A stretch of 63,907 nucleotides of DNA, counting the filler, from Craspedostauros australis (Eukaryota), in NCBI GenBank assembly GCA_030167865.1. It is 14 parts of 14 records of this genome, joined end to end, with 100 filler letters (N's around TTAATTAATTAA, not from the genome) between each part and the next. Parts side by side here need not be neighbours in the genome. Positions count along the whole stretch, not along the records: positions 21,419 to 27,480 come from JALAGF010002609.1; 13 more parts are not named here. One strand, given 5' to 3'. A program made the translations under genes and the position numbers. Below are positions 11,101 to 62,932 of the stretch, one piece after another; position 1 is the stretch's first letter; the number at the start of each line of letters is the position of its first letter. The notes beneath the pieces were generated by a model. It was given only the letters and a program-made list of their open reading frames with translations. It did not search any database and had not been told where the DNA came from.

Positions 11101-12130
11101 GCTCCTGTGATCTCTCATGTGCCCATCGCGTCTGGTGTTTCAATGCCAGTTTCTTGGTGGCGTCAGAGTCAACAACTTCAACTCTCCGCCTCGATGAACG
11201 GAGGTGCCGGTTTTGTTGCCCCATACTTATGAGCCCGATCAGTGAGTCGACCTGCACTTTGTCATGGGACTCAATAACTTTTATCTAGTAGATCCACACC
11301 AAGCACATAGTCGTAATCCTTATAATCTTCTTACAAATAATTAACCGATCGATTTTTGTTGTATATCCTTTTTTAAGTTTTATGTACAGTCAAAGATATG
11401 CTAAAGTCCTATGAGTCGACCACATGAAACTCCTGGTTGTTTTTCAGAAGGTTCCATGCTGTTCCGAAGTATTTATCGTCGGGTGATCAGTCACGGACCT
11501 GCTCCGGAAGGAGTCGTTCGTTTGGTACACGTTAAATACACGTTAGCATCTGCGACATGATCTCGCATTTTGCTCGTCACAAAACACATCACACAAAACA
11601 CATCACACATCCAAAATCATCGCCATCCCCTCACAATTTCGCAAATCATNNNNNNNNNNNNNNNNNNNNNNNNNNNNNNNNNNNNNNNNNNNNTTAATTA
11701 ATTAANNNNNNNNNNNNNNNNNNNNNNNNNNNNNNNNNNNNNNNNNNNNTTTCGACCGTTTCACTCCAAATTGTTGTTGCTTTGTATTGGAGCGAAACCA
11801 GTCACGAGGACTCGAATGAGTCACGATCAGCAGTAAACAACAACAACCACAGAAGACTCAACGCAAAAAAAGAGAAACCAAAACACAGAAGACACAATCC
11901 ATCAAACAACACATTGGATACGAACTCATACCCAACTACCGCCACCGTTTCAATACAGACATCGAATTGCCACTCACATTCATCACACAGTGCATGGTAC
12001 TCATATTATACCAATACAAGCTATTGAAGACATACCATCGATATCTCTGCCACAGATAGCTCAGACTGCACACTTCCTTGACAGCCAATCCAACGCCAAT
12101 CGTCCAGCAACCATCGACCATCCTCTCAAA

Positions 12131-19581: not shown

Positions 19582-20598
19582 TCATTCTTTTTGCCTCTTT
19601 CGTTTCAACTGCTGTCCCAACTGTTCTTGTGGCTGTTCATTTGCTCGCTCGTTTTGTTGTAAGCGCTGTTGTAGTTGTTGTAGTTGTTGTAGTTGTGGGT
19701 GAGCTGAAGGCGAAAGTCCTCTGATGAGGGACTCCATACACTCCAGGTGGCCGTTGTAGCATGCCTCATGAAGGGGAGTGTCGCCATTGTTGTTTTGGCA
19801 GTTGATGTTCGCTCCACCTGATTTGGTGAGGTACTCCACACACTCCAGGTGGTCTTTGTCGCATGCCTTATGAAGGGGAGTGTCACCATAGTAGTTTTGG
19901 CAGTTGACGTTTGCTCCACCTGATTCGATGAGGTACACCACACACTCCAGGTGGCCATTGTTGCATGCGTCATGAAGGGGAGTGTAACCAAGGTTGGCTT
20001 TGCAGTTGGCGTCAGCCCTGCATGATTTGATGAGGTACTTCACACACTCCAGGTGGCCATTGTTGCATGCGCCATGAAGGGGAGTGTGACCACACATGTC
20101 TTTGCAGTTGACGTCAGCCCCGCATGATTTGATGAGGTACTCCACACGCTCCAGGTGGCCATTGTTGCATGCGCCATGAAGGGGAGTGTGACCAAACATG
20201 TCTTTGCAGTTGACGTCAGCCCCACATGATTTGATGAGGTACTCCACACGCTCCAGGTGGCCATTGTTGCATGCGTCATGAAGGGGAGTGTGACCAAACA
20301 TGTCTTTGCAGTTGACGTCAGCCCCGCATGATTTGATGAGGTACTCCACACGCTCCAGGTGGCCATTGTTGCATGCGCCATGAAGGGGAGTGTAACCAAA
20401 CATGTCTTTGCAGTTGACGTCAGCCCCACATGATTTGATGAGGTACTCGCCATGAAGGGGAGTGTGACCAAACATGTCTTGGCGGTTGATGTCAACTCCT
20501 TCATTCTGCATCTGGTTCTGCTTCTTCCATTCCTTCAACACCGACAAGTCACCTGCTATGGCAGCATCAATGAGTTGTTGGTCTGTGACATTCGGCAT
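19582..20598 (-). CDS. ankyrin-repeat protein, copy 3 (8 repeats, first with in-frame 10-aa deletion)
   Basis: Tandem 102-bp units VNCKDMFG(H/Y)TPLH.ACNNGHLE.VEYLIKSCGAD. Confidence 0.85.
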   Translation of the reverse strand: MPNVTDQQLIDAAIAGDLSVLKEWKKQNQMQNEGVDINRQDMFGHTPLHGEYLIKSCGADVNCKDMFGYTPLHGACNNGHLERVEYLIKSCGADVNCKDMFGHTPLHDACNNGHLERVEYLIKSCGADVNCKDMFGHTPLHGACNNGHLERVEYLIKSCGADVNCKDMCGHTPLHGACNNGHLECVKYLIKSCRADANCKANLGYTPLHDACNNGHLECVVYLIESGGANVNCQNYYGDTPLHKACDKDHLECVEYLTKSGGANINCQNNNGDTPLHEACYNGHLECMESLIRGLSPSAHPQLQQLQQLQQRLQQNERANEQPQEQLGQQLKRKRQKE

Positions 20599-21224
20599 GT
20601 TGAGAGGATGGTCGATGGTTGCTGGACGATCAACGTTGGACGTTGGATGATTGGTGTTGGATTGGCTGTCGAGGAAGTGTGTGGTCTGAGCTATCTACTA
20701 TGAGGCAGAGATATTGATGGTGTGTCTTCAATAGCTTGTATCAGTATGAGTACCATGCACCGCGTGATGAATAGTAGTATGAGTGGCAATTCGGTGCTTG
20801 TTGTTGATGTGCTCGAGTATGGGGTTGAGTGGTGTGTGTTGTTGTCTTGTTCGCACGCGTCCTCTCTTTCTCTCTTTGTGCACAAGCATCGTCGTGTTTG
20901 CCTCCTTCTCTTGATCGCACCCCTCTCTGGTTCGTGCGGCTTGGATCCTCCGGGACACCCGGCAAAATGGGTCGAATTAGTCTATCTTGGAGGCTACTGA
21001 CCCAGCCAATCAAAACTCGTTGTTTTTGCGATGACAAAAGATCCCACAAGAGGAATGTTCTCGAATCAAATTTTCGTTCTCAGGAACTCTTTGAAGGTCA
21101 TAGCTTCCAGTGTTATTTATGGGTAGTTCATGGAGAAACTCCGAAAATGACTCTGCAATACTGTGTCTTGATTAAATCCCGACCAGTCGTGCGAAAACCG
21201 AACCCTTGATTTAAATAGCCGCCC

Positions 21225-21300
21225 TTCGATTTTATTATCCGTCATTCGATTTTAATATCCGTCATTCGATTTATTTATCCGTCACTCGATTTATTTAGTT
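21225..21300. repeat. 20-bp tandem repeat (TTCGATTTTATTATCCGTCA-like, ~3.7 copies)
   Basis: Seen directly next to the contig end, in AT-rich sequence. Confidence 0.8.
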
Positions 21301-21418
21301 ATCAATCCATTGTCTTCANNNNNNNNNNNNNNNNNNNNNNNNNNNNNNNNNNNNNNNNNNNNTTAATTAATTAANNNNNNNNNNNNNNNNNNNNNNNNNN
21401 NNNNNNNNNNNNNNNNNN

Positions 21419-21800
21419 GCGCGCTCGTTGGGTTGCTTGTTGGGTTGTTTGTCAGCGTGCTTGTGGGCGCGCTTGTTGGGTTGTTTATCAGCGTGCTTGT
21501 GGGCGCGCTTGATGGGTTGCTTGTTGGGTTGTTTGTCAGCTTGTTTGTGGGCGCGCTTGATGGGTTGCTTGTTGGGTTGCTTGTCAGCTTGTTTGTGGGC
21601 GCGCTTGATGGGTTGCTTGTTGGGTTGTTTGTCAGCTTGCTTGTGGGCGTGCTTGTTGGGCTGCTTGTCGGGTTTCTTGTCGAGTTGTTTGTCAGCATGC
21701 TTGTGGGCGCGCTCGTTGGGTTGTTTGTTGGGTTGCTTGTTGGGTTGTTTGTCAGCGTGCTTGTGGGCGCGCTTGTTGGGTTGCTGACTGGTGCGGCGGT
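21419..21800 (-). repeat. coding PT/S/N-rich tandem repeats (PTSNPSSAPTNKLTNN), mucin-like stalk
   Basis: 36/48-bp tandem units of gttgggttgcttgttgggttgtttgtcagc type. Confidence 0.85.
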
Positions 21801-24800
21801 GACTGGCAAAGCCGTGGGGAAAGGCACCGGACCAGTCGTTGGCTGGCAATCTCTGATCTGGGTCGTCTCGGATGATTGGAATTCTCCTCCAGACTTTTGC
21901 AACACGCCGTCGACGAAGATCTTGTATGATCCCTTCCCGACCTCGCAGCAGATTCCGTCACCATATGTGTCAACAATCATCATACTCAAGCAGGCAGACT
22001 TGGAGACGCATATCTCCTTGGTGTAGAGCTGGATGGTGTTGTCGGCAAACGGGCCATCTTGGAGGAGGACGTCGTCTCCATTCTTCAGCTCCCAGGTGGT
22101 TTCGGATCCGAAGTAATCTGTCAGTAGTTCCACGCGGACCATGGACTCATCGGATGCACAGGCATTCAAGTTACAATCTCCGACCAGGATCGTCTCAGTT
22201 GTTCCGAATTCTCCTCCAGTTATCTGCACCATGCCATCGACGATAATCCTGTAGGATCCCCTACCGAAGCTGCAGCAGATTCCGTTGCCAATTGTGTCAG
22301 CAATCGTCATGCTCAAGCAGGCAGACTTGGAGACGCATATCTCCTTGGTGTAGAGCTGCTGAACGAAGTTGTCGGCAAACGGACCATCTTGGAGGAGGAC
22401 GGTGTCTCCATTCTTCAGCTCCCAGGTGGTTTGGGATCCGTAGTAATCTGCCAATAGTTCCACGCGGACCATGGACTCATCGGATGCACAGGCACTCGAG
22501 TTGCTTCCAACTGCAGGTGCCGAAGTGGGGCTGCAATTTCCGATCTGGGTCGTCTCAATTGTTTCGAATTCTCCTCCAGACATCTGCACCACGCCATCGA
22601 CGAAGATCTTGTATGATCCCCCACCTTTGCTGCAGCAGATTCCGTCACCATATGTGTCAGCAATCGTCATGCTCAAGCAGGCAGACTTGGAGACGCATAT
22701 CTCCTTGGTGTAGAGCTGGAAAATGAAGTTGGGAAACGGGCCATCTTGGAGGAGGATGTTGTCTCTACTCTTCAGCTCCCAGGTGGTTTCTGATCCGCGG
22801 TAATCTGTCAGTAGTTCCACGCGGACCATGGACTCATCGGATGCACAGGCACTCGAGTTGCTTCCGACTGTAGGTGCCGAAGTGGGGCTGCAATTTCCGA
22901 TCTGGGTCGTCTCACTTGTTTCGAATTCTCTTCCATACTTCTGCCGGACGCCGTCGACGAAGATCTGGTATGAACCATATCCTCCTGAGCAGCAGATTCC
23001 GTCACCATATGTGTCAACAATCGTCATGCTCAAGCAGACAAACTTGGGGACGCACATCTCCTTGGTGTAGCGCCGACGAAAGAAGTCGACGAACGGGCCA
23101 TCTTGGAGGAGGACGTCGTCTCCATTCTTCAGCTCCCAGGTGGTTTCGGATCCGTAGTTATCTGTCGATAGTTCCACGCGGACCATGGACTCATCGGATG
23201 CACAGGCATTCAAGTTACAATCTCCGATCTGGGTGGTCTCAGTTCTTCCGAAGTCTCCTCCATACTTCTGCACCATGCCATCGACGATAATCCTGTAATA
23301 TCCATCACCGTAGCTGCAACAAATTCCGTTCCAACCGAAGTCAGCAATCGTCATGCTCAAGCAGGCAGACTTGGAGACACATACCTCCTTGGTGTAGAGC
23401 TGAAAATTGTTGCCAAACGGGCCATCTTGGAGGAGGACGGTGTCTCCATCCTTCAGCTCCCAGGTGGTTTCGGATCCGTACCTATCTGTCAGTAGTTCCA
23501 CGCGGACCATGGACTCATCGGATGCACAGGCACTCGAGTTGCTTGCAACTGTAGGTGCAGAAGTGGGGCTGCAATCCCCGATCTGGGTCGTCTCACTTGT
23601 TCCGAATTCTCCTCCAGACTTCTGCTCGACGCCGTCGATGAAGATCTTGTATGATCCCTTTCCGTTGGTGCAGCAGATTCCGTTGCGACCTGTGTCAGCA
23701 ATCGTCATGCTCAAGCAGGCAGACTTGGAGACGCATATCTCCTTGGTGTAGTGCTTGCTGGTGAACTGGGCAAACGGGCCATCTTGGAGGAGGACACTGT
23801 CTCCATTCTTCAGCTCCCAGGTGGTTTCTGATCCGCGGTAATCTGTCAGTAGTTGCACGCGGACCATGGACTCATCGGATGCACAGCCATTCGAGTCACA
23901 ATCTCCAATCTGGGTCGTCTCGGATGATTCGAATTCTCCTCCAGACTTCTGCTCGACGCCATCGACGAAGATCTTGTATGATCCCGAACCTTCACTGCAG
24001 CAGATTCCGTCACCATATGTGTCAAAAATCGTCATATTCAAGCAGGCAGACTTGGAGACGCACATCTCCTTGGTGTGGACCTCGATGGTGATGTCGGCAA
24101 ACGGACCATCTTGGAGGAGGACGGTGTCTCCATCCCTCAGCACCCAGGTGGTTTCGGATCCGTAGTTATCTGTGAGTAGTTCCACGCGGACCATGGACTC
24201 ATCGGATGCACAGGCACTCGAGTTGCTTCCGACTGTAGGTGCCGAAGTGGGGCTGCAATCTCCGATCTGGGTCGTCTCACTTGTTTCGAATTCTCCTCCA
24301 GACTTCTGCTCGACGCCGTCGACGAAGATCTTGTATGATCCCTTTCCGTTGGTGCAGCAGATTCCGTTGCCAATTGTGTCAACAATCGTCATGTTCAAGC
24401 AGGCAGACTTGGAGACGCATACCTCCTTGGCGTGGACCTGGATGGGGCTGTTGTCAAACCAGCGATCTTGGAGGGGGCCATCTTGGAGGAGGACGGTGTC
24501 TCCATCCTTCAGCTCCCAGATAGTTTGGGATCCGTAGTAATCTGGCAGTAGTTGCACGCGGACCATGGACTCGTCGGATGCACAAGCATTCAAGTTACAA
24601 TCTCCGATCTGGGTGGTCTCAGTTCTTCCGAAGTCTCCTCCAAACTTCTGCACCACGCGATCGACGATAATCCTGTAATAACCATTGCCTCCTGAGCAGC
24701 AGATTCCGTCACCATATGTGTCAACAATCGTCATGCTCAAGCAGGCAGACTTGGAGACGCATATCTCCTTGGTGTAGAGCTGGAAAATGAAGTTGGGAAA

Positions 24801-27480
24801 CGGGCCATCTTGGAGGAGGACGTCGACTCCATTCTTCAGCTCCCAGGTAGTTTCGGATCCGTACCTATCTGTCAGTAGTTCCACGCGGACCATGGACTCA
24901 TCGGATGCACATGCATTTGAGGTGCTTGCAACTGTAGGTGCCGAAGTGGGGCTGCAATCTCCGATCTGGGTGGTCTCACTTGTTTCGAATTCTCCTCCAA
25001 ACTTCTGCAACACGCCGTCGACGATAATCCTGTAAGATCCGTAACCTATTGAACAGCAGATTCCGTCACCATATGTGTCAGCAATCGTCATGCTCAAGCA
25101 GGCAGACTTGGAGACGCATACCTCCTTGGTGTAGAGCTGGAAAATGTTGTCGATAAACGGCCCATCTTGGAGGAGGACGTTGTCTCCATTCTTCAGCTCC
25201 CAGGTGGTTTCGGATCCGTACCTATCTGTCCATAGTTCCACGCGGACCATGGACTCATCGGATGCACATGCATTTGAGGTGCTTCCATCTGTAGGTGCCG
25301 AAGTGGCGTGGCTTGGTGGGTTGCTTGGTGGGTTGTTTGTCAGCTTGCTTGTGGGCGCGCTTGTTGGGTTGCTGACTGGTGCGGCGGTGACTGGCAAAGC
25401 AGTGGGGAAAGGCACCGGAGCAGTCGTTGGTTCTGGACTCTGGCAATCTCCGATCTGGGTCGTTTCAGTTGTTGCAAATGCTCCGACAAACACTTCCGGT
25501 ATGCCGTCAACAATAATCCTGTAGGATCCATATCCTCCTGAGCAGCAGATTCCGTCACCATATGTGTCAACAATCGTCATACTCAAGCAGGCAGACTTGG
25601 AGACGCATATCTCCTTGGCGTAGAGCTTGCTGATGTGGTCGATAAACGGTCCATCTTGGAGGAGGACGTTGTCTCCATTCTTCAGCTCCCAGGTGGTTTC
25701 GGATCCGTAGTTATCTGTCAGTATTTGTACGCGGACCATGGACTCATCGGATGCACAGGCATTCGAGGTGCTTCCATCTGTAGGTGCCGAAGTGGGGTTG
25801 CTTGTAGGTGCGCTTGTTGGGTTGCTGATTGGCTTGCTTGTGGGTGTGCTTGTTGGGTTGCTTGTTGGACTGCTGACTGGTGCGGCGGTGACTGGCGCTG
25901 CGCTGGAGGCAAGAACTCGAGCGGCTGTCGTTGTGGGACCGCCGCCACCGCAGGTTCCAACGTCGAACTCTTCACTGTTCTGGAACGCTCCGCCGGACTT
26001 GATCTTAACTCCTGCACGGGAAACCTCGTACATTCCCTGGCCCCACCCACAGCACATGCCGTCGCCTTCCACATCTGCAATCTCAAACTTCACGCAGCTG
26101 TTGGGAGACACGCACAGCTTGGACTCGAACGATGTCAGCTTCTCATCGGCACCGTATGGTCCACCAGTCTGGGCAACCTGCGAGTCCACAGTCAGCTTCC
26201 ATGTTGTTTCGGCTGGGTAGTTGTCTGTCCTCACGAAGACCTCAACTAGTTCCAATCCATTCTCGCAATCTGGGACAGGCGCTGGTGTCGGAGACAGCCC
26301 CCCGCTGCATCCAGCACCTTCGCAACGGAATGTCATGTACTCGCCCGAGTTGCTGATCTCCGTAATCTTGAGGCCCGTCGGGTTGATGTTTCCATTCTGG
26401 TAACTGTCCGTGTTGGGGTGCTTGTTGGCCCCGATGTTGGGATCGTTGGACGGCAGGAGTTTGGTGACGCCGCGGCCGTGGAAGACATCGTTGGCATCGC
26501 CGTTGTTCTTCTCTTGCTCGAGATCGTATTGGCCATCTGCCTGCACCATCGCGATTCGGTAATGTTTGTTGTTTGTTGGCCAACCGGCCTGTCCTGGCCA
26601 GCCCTGGTCGTGCGGTTCCGCCTTCTTCTCGTCGATATGCCAGATGCAGAGACCGGCCTGTGGCATATTCTTGTCAGACTCGAGCTGTTGGCGGTTCTCA
26701 ATCAGGAGGTACCTGCATCAAGGAGAGTTCGAAGGCATGTGGAGAATTGTACAAAAGTGTGAATGTGATTGAGGCTGTGAGCGTGCATGTACTTGAGCAT
26801 CGACAGACCACAATTTGGGGAGGACAATTCGAAATATGAATCATAGCATGACATGGCAGTGCAATGAGGCGCACTTACTCTCCGGCTGGGTAGCCACCCT
26901 CGCCGTCTCCGATCTTGTAGATATCTCTGTTGGTTTGAACCGCCGTGATGGGGTTGACACCCTCACCGGGACGCTTGGGCGTGACCCAGTTCAGCGTGAC
27001 CTTCGACCAAGCGGATGGGTGTGGCGGATGATACTGGTCGCCTTCGAATCCCCAGCTGTTCGCCATGAGACCGAACGATCCGATGCCGCTGCCGTCATCG
27101 CCGTAATCATACAGATCTGGCAAGCCAAGGAAGTGCGCCATCTCGTGCGTGATCACGCCAACACGTCCGATCGCAGTTCCGGACGTGCTCCACAAACCAG
27201 GATTCGCGTGGTAGTCCTGGATCTCCACGTTGTCCCAGCTCGTGAACTTGTTGGTGAGGCTCCACTGGTGTGACCAGATGCGGTCCTTCTGGGCAGCGCC
27301 GAATCCATCCGGGTCCGAATCCGATTCGGCACCGTATCCCGAATGGATGATGGTGAAACCGTCGATCCAGCCATCACCGTCAGCATCAAACTGCTTGAAG
27401 TCGAGGTTCTGGCCATTCAATATGTTCAGCGCATCTGTGATGCAGTCATGAATCACGGAGGTACCGCCGCTGCTGTTGTC
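21419..27480 (-). CDS. M6-family (immune inhibitor A-like) metalloprotease with 12 Cys-rich repeat domains and PT-rich stalk; exons >27480-26879 and 26712-<21419; both ends in gaps
   Basis: FDADGDGWIDGFTIIHSGYGAE, IWSHQW, HEMAHFLGLPDLYD, GIGSFGLMANSW and SAWSKVTLNW are M6 motifs. Intron GA|gtaagt (26878) to tgcag|G (26713) restores EYLLIENRQ. Then 1 divergent and 11 near-identical CASDESMVRV...DGICC domains. Confidence 0.93.
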
Positions 27481-27580
27481 NNNNNNNNNNNNNNNNNNNN
27501 NNNNNNNNNNNNNNNNNNNNNNNNTTAATTAATTAANNNNNNNNNNNNNNNNNNNNNNNNNNNNNNNNNNNNNNNNNNNN

Positions 27581-28790
27581 GGCGCTTTGCAAACCATCTA
27601 CAAGTGTACAGTCGAGTGGAGCGGCGATCTCTACTGCGGCGTGAGTCTCAAATGGGACTACACGGCGCGAACAGTGGAGCTCTCCATGCCAGGATACGTG
27701 CAAAAAGCACTTCACAAGTTTCAGCACCCCATCCCCACTCGACCACAACATGCGCCGGCACCGTGGGACGCACCAACCTACGGGGCGAAGACACAAGAGC
27801 CCAAACACGATGACACATCGCCCAAACTCCCGGCGGAACAAATCATCCGCATTCGACAAGTGGTGGGGACACTACTATACTACGCCAGAGCAGTAGACCC
27901 AACCATCCTACCAGCAGTAAGCGACATCGCCACACAGCAGGCGCACGCGACACAAGACACCGAACGACGCGTGAACCAACTCATGGACTACTGCGCCACC
28001 CATCCCAACGCCATCCTGGTGTATCATGCCAGCGACATGATCTTGCACGTCGACAGCGACGCATCCTACCTCAGCTTACCAAAAGCGAGAAGCCGGGCCG
28101 GAGGCCACATGTACCTCAGCAAACGGTCCACCGATACCACCAAGGCACCGAGCACCGAGCCACCCAACAATGGCGCCATTCACACCGTATGCAACAAAAT
28201 ACAAAATGTGATGAGCTCCGCGGCCGAAGCCGAAGTGGGCGCCCTGTACTTGAACTGCACAGCAGCCACAGCACTTCGCACAACGCTCGACGAGTTGGGG
28301 CATCCCCAACCACCTACGCCCATCAAAACAGACAATTCCACAGCATCCGGAATTGTGAACAACACGATGAAACAACGACACACGCGGGCCATGGACATGC
28401 GGTTCTACTGGGTGCGCGACCGTGTCCAACAGGGCCAGTTCATCATCTATTGGGCCCCAGGAGCAGACAACCTCGCCGACTACTTCACCAAACATCATCC
28501 GGCAGCTCACCATCGCAAAATGCGCGAAGTCTACCTCAAGCCCACTCCAGACAGTGGCAAGGCAACAGGACAGAGCATGCTGGGAGTTCCGCGAGGGTGT
28601 GCTGATTCCAGTCCCGCCCGTGACTCGCCTGACCATCGCCAGAACGCTATGCACCTCGCGCCCACTTTTCTGCTAGAGACAGGCAAGCTACGATCAGGAA
28701 TCCTTTCCGCAACTCCAGCGCTAATCAATACAATCTCTCATAAATATTAGCGAACAACATTGATTCACTCACTCAGTCCTATTGACAGGT
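27581..28790 (+). mobile_element. Ty1/copia (CoDi-like) retrotransposon 3' part: RT end, RNase H, PPT and probable 3' LTR
   Basis: YCGVSLKWDY, LHVDSDASYL, SAAEAEVGAL, TDNSTA, MDMRFYWVRD, NLADYFTKHH; gcgagggtg PPT-like tract then TG at ~28600. LTR right end uncertain. Confidence 0.9.
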
Positions 28791-62470: not shown

Positions 62471-62932
62471 NNNNNNNNNNNNNNNNNNNNNNNNNNNNNN
62501 NNNNNNNNNNNNNNNNNNNNNNNNNNNNNNNNNNNNNNNNNNNNNNNNNNNNNNNNNNNNNNNNNNNNNNNNNNNNNNNNNNNNNNNNNNNNNNNNNNNN
62601 NNNNNNNNNNNNNNNNNNNNNNNNGGGTTAGTGTTAGTAAGAACTAATTGGTTGTTAGATCGTACTATTCAGAACTGTGAGCTCATTCTCTTCAGCTCCT
62701 TTGCCTTTTGTTTCTCATATAGCATCTCCTGCAGCAGCACCGTGTTATACTGTTGCATTCATGCATCTCATCATCATGAATCATCGCTTGCATNNNNNNN
62801 NNNNNNNNNNNNNNNNNNNNNNNNNNNNNNNNNNNNNTTAATTAATTAANNNNNNNNNNNNNNNNNNNNNNNNNNNNNNNNNNNNNNNNNNNNATCATAA
62901 AATACTTCACCAAGTTGATGTAGCCTGTGCCA

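Follow-up and report, generated by a model that had tools for sequence, protein, structure and literature searches.

A gene on the minus strand of a 6,062-bp contig of Craspedostauros australis (JALAGF010002609.1; positions 21419-27480) encodes an InhA-like M6 zinc metalloprotease followed by twelve copies of a small cysteine-rich domain, eleven of which (D1-D11; 104-110 aa; 21846-25757) form a recent tandem array. The best reading of the copies' sequences is that the scaffold is under purifying selection and residues in the loops are under positive selection. To the best explanation of this pattern, a multivalent, multi-specific binding array targeting the M6 protease, we give about an even chance. 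We found no earlier description of such an array in diatoms in the literature that we looked through, in agreement with the original prediction.

Gene structure and domain copies

The contig is part of the window, the 63,907-nt stretch of DNA analysed here, which consists of small contigs strung together with 13 artificial linkers (44 N, TTAATTAATTAA, 44 N). Two of these unstranded contig-joining linkers flank the contig (21319-21418 and 27481-27580), and the gene is therefore cut at both ends. With a 166-nt intron (26713-26878, GTAAGT...ATGCAG) spliced out, the M6 domain and D0-D11 fall in a single open frame of 1,965 codons. The spliced form is represented by a 2,335-nt contig of public run X1, which joins 26709 to 26876 (the cut can be shifted by 3) and extends 764 nt further upstream of 27480. 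A scan of the 6,062-bp contig for ORFs revealed none beyond this gene and repeat-derived shadows. The gene probably belongs to a diatom or diatom-like organism.

The exon at 26879-27480, which holds the M6 (immune inhibitor A-like) catalytic domain, contains the zinc motif HEMAHFLGLPD (HEXXHXXGXXD) in its translation. It matched PF05547 (E 1.6e-12; 47.7 bits, cut-off 22) and, on a partial domain, TIGR03296 (118 bits, cut-off 110.8); a sequence match was also obtained to PDB InhA 4yu5 (E 3.4e-5), which has the same catalytic motif. Over 26268-26712, the C-terminal part of the M6 region ahead of the first domain copy, tblastn with the diatom M6 homologues P0021, P0164 and P0165 showed 45-59% identity. 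These profile matches, the zinc motif and the spliced contig bear out the proposal that an M6 protease is joined to the array. Diatom homologues have ~220 residues upstream of the point where the contig ends; the 5′ part of the gene is absent because the contig stops at 27480. The protease is probably secreted. Bacterial InhA-type enzymes carry other accessory domains, whereas the gene in the window, seen without its N-terminal third, has an intron and twelve unnamed Cys-rich modules.

The closest M6 homologue was P0021 (1,028 aa), from the transcriptome of Stauroneis constricta. It consists of a signal-peptide-like start, an M6 domain, a PT linker and 3 domain copies, the same order of parts as in the window gene, for which the signal-like start is taken from P0021. 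Like P0021, P0164 and P0165 are M6 proteases of diatom or marine origin that carry the module; the identity of these three proteins to the window in the M6 part is 50-59%. The three copies of P0021 differ widely at many aligned positions, and neither a recent eleven-copy expansion nor concentrated patch variation is present.

All domain copies lie on the minus strand. The first, D0 (25950-26267; 106 aa), is a divergent, older copy whose identity to D1-D11 is 32-40% (tblastn E 1e-15 to 1e-20); it retains the six Cys and the family motif. D0 and the intron had both been overlooked in the original prediction. Translation revealed a Pro/Thr/Ser-rich linker of 64 aa (25758-25949) between D0 and D1 (25443-25757), with which the recent array begins, and a similar linker of 58 aa (25269-25442) between D1 and the D2-D11 block (21846-25268). 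Copy comparison, codon models and structure models were applied to this block, which comprises D2 (24954-25268), D3 (24597-24911), D4 (24255-24584), D5 (23898-24212), D6 (23571-23885), D7 (23217-23528), D8 (22890-23204), D9 (22533-22847), D10 (22173-22490) and D11 (21846-22160). Linkers within D2-D11 are either 14 aa (SPTSAPTV...) or 4 aa (NLNA/DSNG), the four-residue form occurring in the pairs D3-D4, D5-D6, D7-D8 and D10-D11. The array is followed by a low-complexity tail rich in Pro/Thr/Ser/Asn (21419-21845, from translation), with tandem repeats of period 48-108, a weak PF04886 (PT-repeat) match under the cut-off, and a frame that stays open up to the contig end.

The array had been predicted at 21850-25770 as eleven near-identical copies. 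Its position agrees with ours and eleven copies are present; however, the copies are similar only. Against D2, the recent copies show 74-84% protein identity, and pairs among D1-D11 are 80-91% identical in DNA (mean dS 0.21). The framework is nearly invariant, as had been described. Residues D15, W23, D64, G69, C71, C72, G75, G77 and Y79 are kept in 12/12 copies. The contig contains 171 maximal exact repeats of at least 25 bp, the longest being a 96-bp match between D3 and D9, and both DNA strings quoted in the prediction recur among them. All of the quoted patch peptides are present in the translation, and every copy carries its own combination of patches.

Fold and family of the domain

The AlphaFold (AF2) model of D2 (pLDDT 93.9, pTM 0.86) is an eight-strand β-sandwich, in line with the scaffold that had been proposed. 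In a model of the D3-D4 didomain (pLDDT 90.1), the 5-residue insertion of D4 merely lengthens loop 3. The best structural match, a weak one, was CBM60 (2xhh; VIA-align Z 7.8, a value ordinary for the best match of this tool; rmsd 2.9 Å over 88/105 residues), followed by TerD and calcium-bound Bacteroides proteins. Foldseek comparison with CBM36/CBM60 gave E 1.3e-2 and TM 0.40. The likeness is that of small β-sandwich accessory modules of secreted enzymes; however, the window module has six cysteines and no detectable sequence relation to CBM36/CBM60, a search of PDB sequences with the family profile giving 0 matches at E≤1. CBM36 and CBM60 recognise sugar directly via calcium, according to PMC6852018. 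The long loops of the window module contain the conserved acidic residues D15, E20, D64 and D68, which may hold a calcium ion.

A profile built from the 12 copies was used to search representative proteins, and matched 6,364 clusters at E≤1e-3, 2,444 at E≤1e-10 and 217 at E≤1e-30. Most family members are proteases secreted by marine bacteria and protists. Among 32 matches scanned with Pfam, 15 had a peptidase domain (S8, trypsin, M11, M43, M12, M4 or M6) and 10 had a type-9 secretion tail; in bacterial type-9-secreted proteases and other enzymes (e.g., P0052, P0124, P0140), the same domain was found by profile C-terminal to S8, M4, M12 and M43 proteases. The family motif, tD.yp.ET.W / FtI.D..GDGiCC..G.G.Y / Gg.F, is present in the window copies. 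The 41 aligned members had no Pfam family in common at E≤1, and no NCBIfam model matched the domain; because neither database has a matching model, this "GDGxCC" family is unnamed in both. The domain is not special to the window gene: the family is very large, and P0021, with 3 copies, is built in the same way.

Codon selection among the eleven copies

Variation had been predicted to cluster in short patches. Counts of minimum changes per codon agreed: nonsynonymous changes were over-dispersed beyond chance (mean 1.09, variance 1.89) and synonymous changes were Poisson-like (0.41, 0.43). Pairwise NG86 dN/dS over the whole domain was 0.72. Site models were fitted to the 11 short sequences with our own implementation, in which relative branch lengths were fixed from M0 and posteriors were naive. 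Comparison of M1a with M2a gave 2ΔlnL 45.0, with ω2 3.65 for 21% of codons and ω0 0.13; framework ω was 0.13-0.23. The largest LRT in 37 simulations under M1a was 4.2. The LRT was 40.7 when the indel-prone patch 2 was left out and 46.2 on ungapped columns, and the two halves, each with its own tree, gave 26.1 and 23.3. NG86 and the site models both point to dN/dS >1 in the patches, a check called for in the original prediction.

Sixteen sites had a posterior >0.8. Ten of these fall within the four long loops (14-20, 36-44, 65-77 and 92-96; 34/105 residues in all; Fisher p 0.007), and 13/16 are ≤2 residues from these loops, leaving three elsewhere (30, 50 and 87). The short even-numbered turns and the termini (15 residues in total) contain none. 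The four patches correspond to the four long odd-numbered loops, which are predicted to sit together at one end of the domain, as read from the strand alternation of the predicted secondary structure and not from coordinates; the expected placement of variable sites on one face is consistent with this model. The long-loop end would be opposite the N and C termini of the sandwich, and the selected sites flank the conserved acidic residues. The description of many substitutions as aromatic or charged was half right: at selected sites aromatic residues were enriched (18% vs 8%), but charged residues were not (16% vs 25%).

We also compared 23 other arrays of the family (60-97% internal identity). 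The positions selected in the window varied in 51% of arrays there, vs 35% for other positions (p 0.016). At the protein level, differences in these arrays spread over the strands too, whereas in the window array they are concentrated in four loops. A search for an allele or close orthologue of the gene for comparison found none.

A proposed binding array and competing explanations

We propose that the C-terminal extension consists of twelve small, disulfide-rich β-sandwich modules on Pro/Thr-rich linkers, and that eleven of them arose from one module by tandem duplication, to some extent in units of two domains. Purifying selection would have kept the scaffold while positive selection drove the four long loops apart. 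The resulting multivalent array would present binding sites with different specificities and may anchor the protease on heterogeneous targets or direct it towards them; glycans or other surface polymers of microbes or particles seem the most plausible targets. The antimicrobial, adhesion or mating role suggested in the original prediction is conjectural.

Antibody CDRs and DGR-diversified lectin folds combine a constant scaffold with variable loops at one end. The window array likewise combines a constant β scaffold with loop variation; however, its diversity is fixed in the germline, with eleven copies in one chain. A diversity-generating retroelement target was rejected: no reverse transcriptase or template repeat was found on the contig, and the synonymous rate of the patches was not raised (0.22 vs 0.17). 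Periscope-type arrays stay nearly identical and vary in copy number, whereas the window copies have diverged by 9-20% in DNA, with ω>1 in loops and mean dS 0.21. The two resemble each other as tandem arrays of one domain type with similar DNA repeats and an exposed protein (PMC9704523, for periscope-type and other bacterial surface proteins). A homogenised array of the periscope type was ruled out by the DNA identity of only 80-91%.

Selection on loops would be equally expected if the array were a surface-exposed stalk or shield whose loops diversify to avoid being bound or cleaved by outside agents (e.g., bacterial adhesins or proteases, parasites or viruses), in which case the modules need bind nothing. 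The Pro/Thr-rich linkers and tail resemble mucin-like stalks, and surface or secreted proteins are numerous in the family. However, evasion offers no obvious reason to retain eleven different versions in one polypeptide. Moreover, the selected sites cluster about the conserved acidic residues at one end of the sandwich, which is more like a ligand site, and family modules occupy the usual position of substrate-binding modules on enzymes. We consider evasion improbable.

Another explanation involves no adaptive diversification: constraint on the loops was relaxed and they drifted, gene conversion held the framework sequences together, and mosaic history plus multi-nucleotide mutation produced a spurious ω>1. 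Intragenic variability was correlated with family-wide variability (Spearman 0.44), as drift would predict, although many positions that vary in the family are frozen in these copies. The history of the copies may be mosaic, since the two halves gave different trees, and identical patches are common to some copies (e.g., the 96-bp D3/D9 match); the PHI recombination test, however, was not significant (p 0.37). Multi-nucleotide mutation is able to raise ω artificially, and the copies differ by 2-3 bases at several selected codons. Synonymous divergence (pS) was 0.170 in the framework vs 0.223 in the patches; homogenisation was evidently not strong, and the similarity of the two values speaks against a hot spot of mutation in the patches. 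The M1a model, under which sites may be neutral, was rejected in each comparison (LRT 45, 41, 26 and 23), far above the null simulations. Drift alone therefore seems quite improbable to us.

The array could also be an assembly artefact, in which reads of several paralogous genes or alleles were threaded into one array or a true array was collapsed or reordered. The window is built of small contigs with artificial linkers, both ends of the contig lie within the gene, and exact stretches of up to 96 bp are common to copies; these are <100 bp, however, and within ordinary read reach. Public contigs over the array are just 135-187 nt, and none bridges two domain copies. Of the 68 X1 pieces placed on the contig, 24 fit two places, and one X1 contig connects 22528 to 21735 with 4 extra letters; nevertheless, 57/68 are ≥99% alike to the contig. 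The regular alternation of 14-aa and 4-aa linkers, the pair structure and the individual patch combination of each copy also argue against an artefact, to which we assign a low probability. The assembly is fragmentary and both the number and the order of the copies are provisional, but a wrong order would still leave diversified copies in the organism.

If the binding-array explanation is correct, a family of thousands of clusters on secreted proteases of at least seven families lacks a name, a solved structure and a known ligand, and this gene supplies eleven natural variants of its presumed binding site. It would also be a rare case of positive selection among copies inside one polypeptide. 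The scaffold is small, confidently folding and disulfide-stabilised, and its tolerance of loop substitutions and a 5-residue insertion would make it a possible basis for engineered binders. A further-reaching version, which we regard as tentative and rather unlikely, is that a germline repertoire of eleven recognition sites in one polypeptide acts as an innate, multi-specific "pattern reader" with which a diatom directs its peptide-degrading M6 protease to many kinds of microbial surface or defence molecule, the unnamed family serving marine secreted proteases in general as a targeting module. Few receptors are known through which diatoms recognise or attack surrounding microbes and particles, and the array, if it binds as proposed, would provide a molecular handle on these processes.

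Organization of the M6 protease gene and its domain array

The gene lies on the minus strand of a 6,062-bp contig (21419-27480) with artificial joining linkers at both ends. Each linker consists of 44 N, TTAATTAATTAA and 44 N, and occurs at 13 places in the window (e.g., 11650-11749, 21319-21418, 27481-27580, 62794-62893). The gaps bearing TTAATTAATTAA are artificial six-frame-stop linkers; with 13 of them, the window strings together small contigs that are separate. Gene neighbourhood across linkers is therefore no proof of linkage, and neighbours are possibly not the true ones. One neighbouring contig carries an ankyrin-repeat gene (19582-20598, minus strand; Ank_2, E 1.3e-97) containing 7.1 tandem copies of a 102-bp unit with 91% identity (19722-20448), another recent intragenic repeat expansion. 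An AT-rich 20/40-bp tandem repeat of 4.5 copies (21208-21297) lies at the end of the neighbouring contig, outside the linker. Directly past a linker is an ORF of 387 aa (27587-28750, plus strand) that had no Pfam match at E ≤ 1e-3; its C-terminal part presumably resembles a copia-type retroelement polyprotein.

Translation revealed a single long minus-strand frame spanning the whole contig. Its upstream exon (26879-27480, minus strand), with the zinc motif HEMAHFLGLPD, encodes the catalytic domain of an M6, immune-inhibitor-A-like, zinc metalloprotease. The exon scored 47.7 bits with Pfam PF05547 (cut-off 22) and 118 bits with NCBIfam TIGR03296 (cut-off 110.8), though only a partial domain is present in the contig, and the sole PDB sequence match of the M6 part was Bacillus InhA (4yu5). 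Low-complexity hits to Pfam (DUF2677, an apicomplexan microprotein) obtained with the whole ORF have no significant stretch and were rejected as spurious. No description of diatom M6 proteases was found in the literature searched; a mention of "M6 family" in one diatom paper came from a table entry with no connection to these enzymes.

A minus-strand intron of 166 nt (GTAAGT...ATGCAG) separates the M6 exon from the array exon. A 2,335-nt contig from the public sequencing run X1 connects 26709 with 26876, which gives this intron once the cut is moved by three bases; a spliced copy of the gene is thus present in X1. When the intron is taken out, a frame of 1,965 codons runs uninterrupted from 27480 to 21419. 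The splice contig and this frame show that protease and array belong to one gene. About 220 N-terminal residues expected from homologues are missing from the contig, past whose end the X1 contig extends 764 nt upstream. The frame is still open at 21419, inside a Pro/Thr/Ser/Asn-rich tail. Numerous ORFs on the plus strand of the array were rejected as repeat shadows.

The array consists of an old, divergent minus-strand copy of the Cys-rich module, D0 (25950-26267; 32-40% identical to the other copies), and eleven recent copies on the same strand, from D1 (25443-25757) down to D11 (21846-22160). D1-D11 showed 74-84% protein identity to D2 and 80-91% DNA identity among themselves. The original prediction described variation focused in short patches of tandem copies whose framework is almost invariant even in DNA. 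All of its quoted patch peptides were found in D1-D11, and its two quoted DNA strings recur among the 171 maximal exact intra-contig repeats of at least 25 bp; D3 and D9 have a 96-bp exact match in common. The minimum number of nonsynonymous changes per codon had a mean of 1.09 and a variance of 1.89 (synonymous: 0.41 and 0.43). This over-dispersion means that changes cluster beyond chance, and the reported piling up in patches is therefore real. Between D0 and D1, and between D1 and D2, lie long Pro/Thr linkers of 64 and 58 residues, respectively. After D2, the linkers have two forms, of 14 residues (SPTSAPTV...) or 4 residues (NLNA, DSNG). The 4-residue form creates the tight pairs D3-D4, D5-D6, D7-D8 and D10-D11, a pattern suggesting that the array grew by duplication of two-domain units.

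An unnamed module family and its predicted fold

No Pfam or NCBIfam model for the module was found when the copies and family members were scanned, no Pfam family was common to the 41 aligned family members at E ≤ 1, and no description of it was found in the literature searched. A profile of the twelve copies nevertheless matched 6,364 representative proteins (50% clusters) at E ≤ 1e-3, 2,444 at 1e-10 and 217 at 1e-30. The consensus, taken over 556 domains from 215 proteins, was tD.yp.ET.W ... gg.y ... cl....cy.FtI.D..GDGiCC..G.G.Y ... Gg.F...e...f. In a Pfam scan of 32 profile matches, 15 had a peptidase domain: S8 (4), M43 (3), M12/reprolysin (3), trypsin, M11, M4, M6, and M43 with Hint (1 each). 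Ten of the 32 had a type-9-secretion sorting tail, and 11 were without any Pfam domain.

Close relatives of the gene or array were not found in whole-protein, representative-protein or metagenome searches. The whole-protein search gave 75 matches (best-alignment identity 21-51% over 5-51% of the query), and 29 aligned domains from representative-protein matches were 30-44% identical to D2. In the ESM Atlas the nearest clusters were unnamed, one with the label Bacillariophyta. The metagenome scan yielded four loci, of which two are GC-rich M6 genes that lack the module and the other two are short contigs, each with a single module copy. The M6 genes of metagenome contigs L001 and L002 (GC 65-67%) are 46-48% identical to the C-terminal part of the window's M6 domain; the module was absent within 10 kb downstream of them. 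Among M6 homologues, P0021 from the diatom Stauroneis constricta comes closest, with 50-59% identity to the window's M6 part; it has a signal-peptide-like start, M6 domain, Pro/Thr linker and module copies, but only three copies, which differ widely among themselves. This homologue and the Bacillariophyta-labelled ESM Atlas cluster make a diatom the probable source of the gene. The order of protease, PT linker and module copies is a family trait, whereas the recent eleven-copy expansion is special to the window gene. P0151, a metagenome protein of 1,350 aa, has another metalloprotease (motif HEVGHN), a signal peptide, a long PT linker and four module copies that also differ at positions beside GDG and CC; possibly this is a second diatom-like protein with diversified loops.

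An AlphaFold2 model of D2, computed from a 41-row alignment (all twelve copies of the window, with 29 profile matches contributing a stretch apiece), had mean pLDDT 93.9 and pTM 0.86. Its eight strands (5-13, 21-27, 30-35, 45-53, 58-64, 78-83, 86-91 and 97-102 in D2 numbering) agree with the beta-sandwich originally proposed. The odd connections are long loops (14-20, 36-44, 65-77, 92-96) and the even ones tight turns (28-29, 54-57, 84-85). Under up-and-down alternation of the strands, all four of these long loops would lie at one end of the sandwich, opposite both termini, as reasoned from topology rather than coordinates. In a D3-D4 didomain model (pLDDT 90.1, pTM 0.65) each domain kept the eight strands, and a five-residue insertion in D4 merely lengthened loop 3 (didomain residues 145-159), where confidence was lower.

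Neither Foldseek against PDB nor an exhaustive structure aligner found a close structural relative of the module, and the family profile had no match among PDB sequences. The best Foldseek match was weak (MmpS5, 8em5; E 2.5e-4, TM 0.57), other rows being scattered lectin-like or jelly-roll folds with TM 0.2-0.4. The exhaustive aligner ranked CBM60 (2xhh) best, with Z 7.8 and rmsd 2.9 Å over 88 residues, a best Z of 7-8 being ordinary for that tool. TerD (Z 6.2) followed, then two Bacteroidales NMR proteins (Bacteroides, Parabacteroides), one solved calcium-bound; the calcium-dependent lectin PA-IIL had Z 5.5. We regard the resemblance of the model to CBM60 as a lead, not as membership. In CBM36 and CBM60, calcium takes a direct part in sugar recognition, as stated in a passage of PMC6852018. 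In the module, acidic residues D15, E20, D64 and D68 are invariant or nearly so family-wide; they lie in loops 1 and 5, adjoining variable positions, and may plausibly form a metal site.

Selection among the recent copies

Nei-Gojobori estimates over the 55 pairs of D1-D11 gave a whole-domain dN/dS of 0.72 (dS 0.21, dN 0.15). The ratio was 0.23 in columns with fewer than three residue types and 2.06 in columns with at least three, a circular choice of columns that serves for scale only. Similar pS values in the two classes (0.170 and 0.223) give no indication of a local mutation hot spot. Codon site models were fitted with our own maximum-likelihood implementation (F3x4, IQ-TREE GY tree, relative branch lengths fixed, one scale parameter free). 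M0 gave ω 0.80. M2a (lnL -1647.06; ω0 0.13 at 56%, ω 1 at 22% and ω2 3.65 at 21% of codons) was strongly preferred to M1a (lnL -1669.55), with 2ΔlnL 45.0; in 37 simulations under the fitted M1a, the LRT ranged from 0 to 4.2. The LRT was 40.7 without indel-rich patch 2, 46.2 with ungapped columns alone, and 26.1 and 23.3 for the two domain halves, each with its own tree. Positive selection thus holds in the one array, that of the window, on which the test was run.

Naive posteriors from these eleven short sequences exceeded 0.8 at sixteen sites (D2 positions 16, 30, 39, 41, 43, 44, 50, 63, 66, 73, 74, 76, 87, 90, 95 and 97). Ten of them lie in the four long loops, which make up 34 of 105 residues (Fisher p 0.007); 13 are at most two residues from a long loop, and the 15 residues that form tight turns and termini include none. 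Selected sites are richer in aromatic residues than other sites (18% vs 8%) and poorer in charged ones (16% vs 25%). At several selected codons, the copies differ in two or three bases.

Relaxed drift combined with homogenisation could mimic ω > 1, an explanation that we consider improbable. The trees of the two domain halves disagree and identical patches are shared, so that the history of the copies may be mosaic; the PHI test for recombination among copies was not significant (p 0.37).

Intragenic and family-wide variability were moderately correlated (Spearman 0.44), and many family-variable positions in strands 1, 2, 3 and 8 stay constant in D1-D11. Among 23 further proteins with copies 60-97% alike, differences fall over strands as much as loops. 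Positions under selection in the window array vary in 51% of these 23 arrays, vs 35% for other positions (p 0.016), indicating that loops are mildly favoured for change family-wide and strongly so in the window array.

Integrity and possible role of the array

The assembly might have threaded paralogues or alleles into one array. In the array region, X1 contigs measure just 135-187 nt and none spans two copies, 24 of the 68 placed X1 pieces fit two positions, and one X1 contig joins 22528 to 21735 with four extra letters. However, a match of 99% or better was obtained for 57 of these pieces and the alternating linker pattern is orderly, and we judge this explanation unlikely. The diversified copies exist in the organism whatever the assembly's correctness. 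The 22528-21735 link leads from the D9/D10 linker to the Pro/Thr tail and would skip D10 and D11; a second X1 contig steps back 192 nt inside the tail (21780 to 21589). Each of these contigs could have arisen by k-mer cross-linking of similar SPTSAPT-coding stretches or stem from shorter variants of the gene. X1 contig cover was missing in one of 30 bins (23855-24057), which proves nothing.

The original interpretation, a multi-specific recognition array on a secreted protease, is supported in part, namely for fold, selection and loop placement. Binding itself is something we infer. With middling confidence, the best-supported reading is that the array comprises protease-targeting binding modules whose ligand sites were driven apart after tandem duplication. 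Tandem duplication would have come first, followed by divergence of putative ligand sites at the loop end of the module, giving multivalent, multi-specific attachment, perhaps calcium-assisted and glycan-directed. That the copies diversify for escape rather than recognition would account for the same selection, and appears about as improbable as drift or misassembly.

Secreted proteases are well known to carry accessory binding modules, also in tandem arrays, and P0021 is a diatom relative with three copies. What is new is a module family of thousands of members that has no name, structure or ligand, and a recent eleven-copy expansion with statistically strong, loop-focused positive selection inside a single polypeptide.
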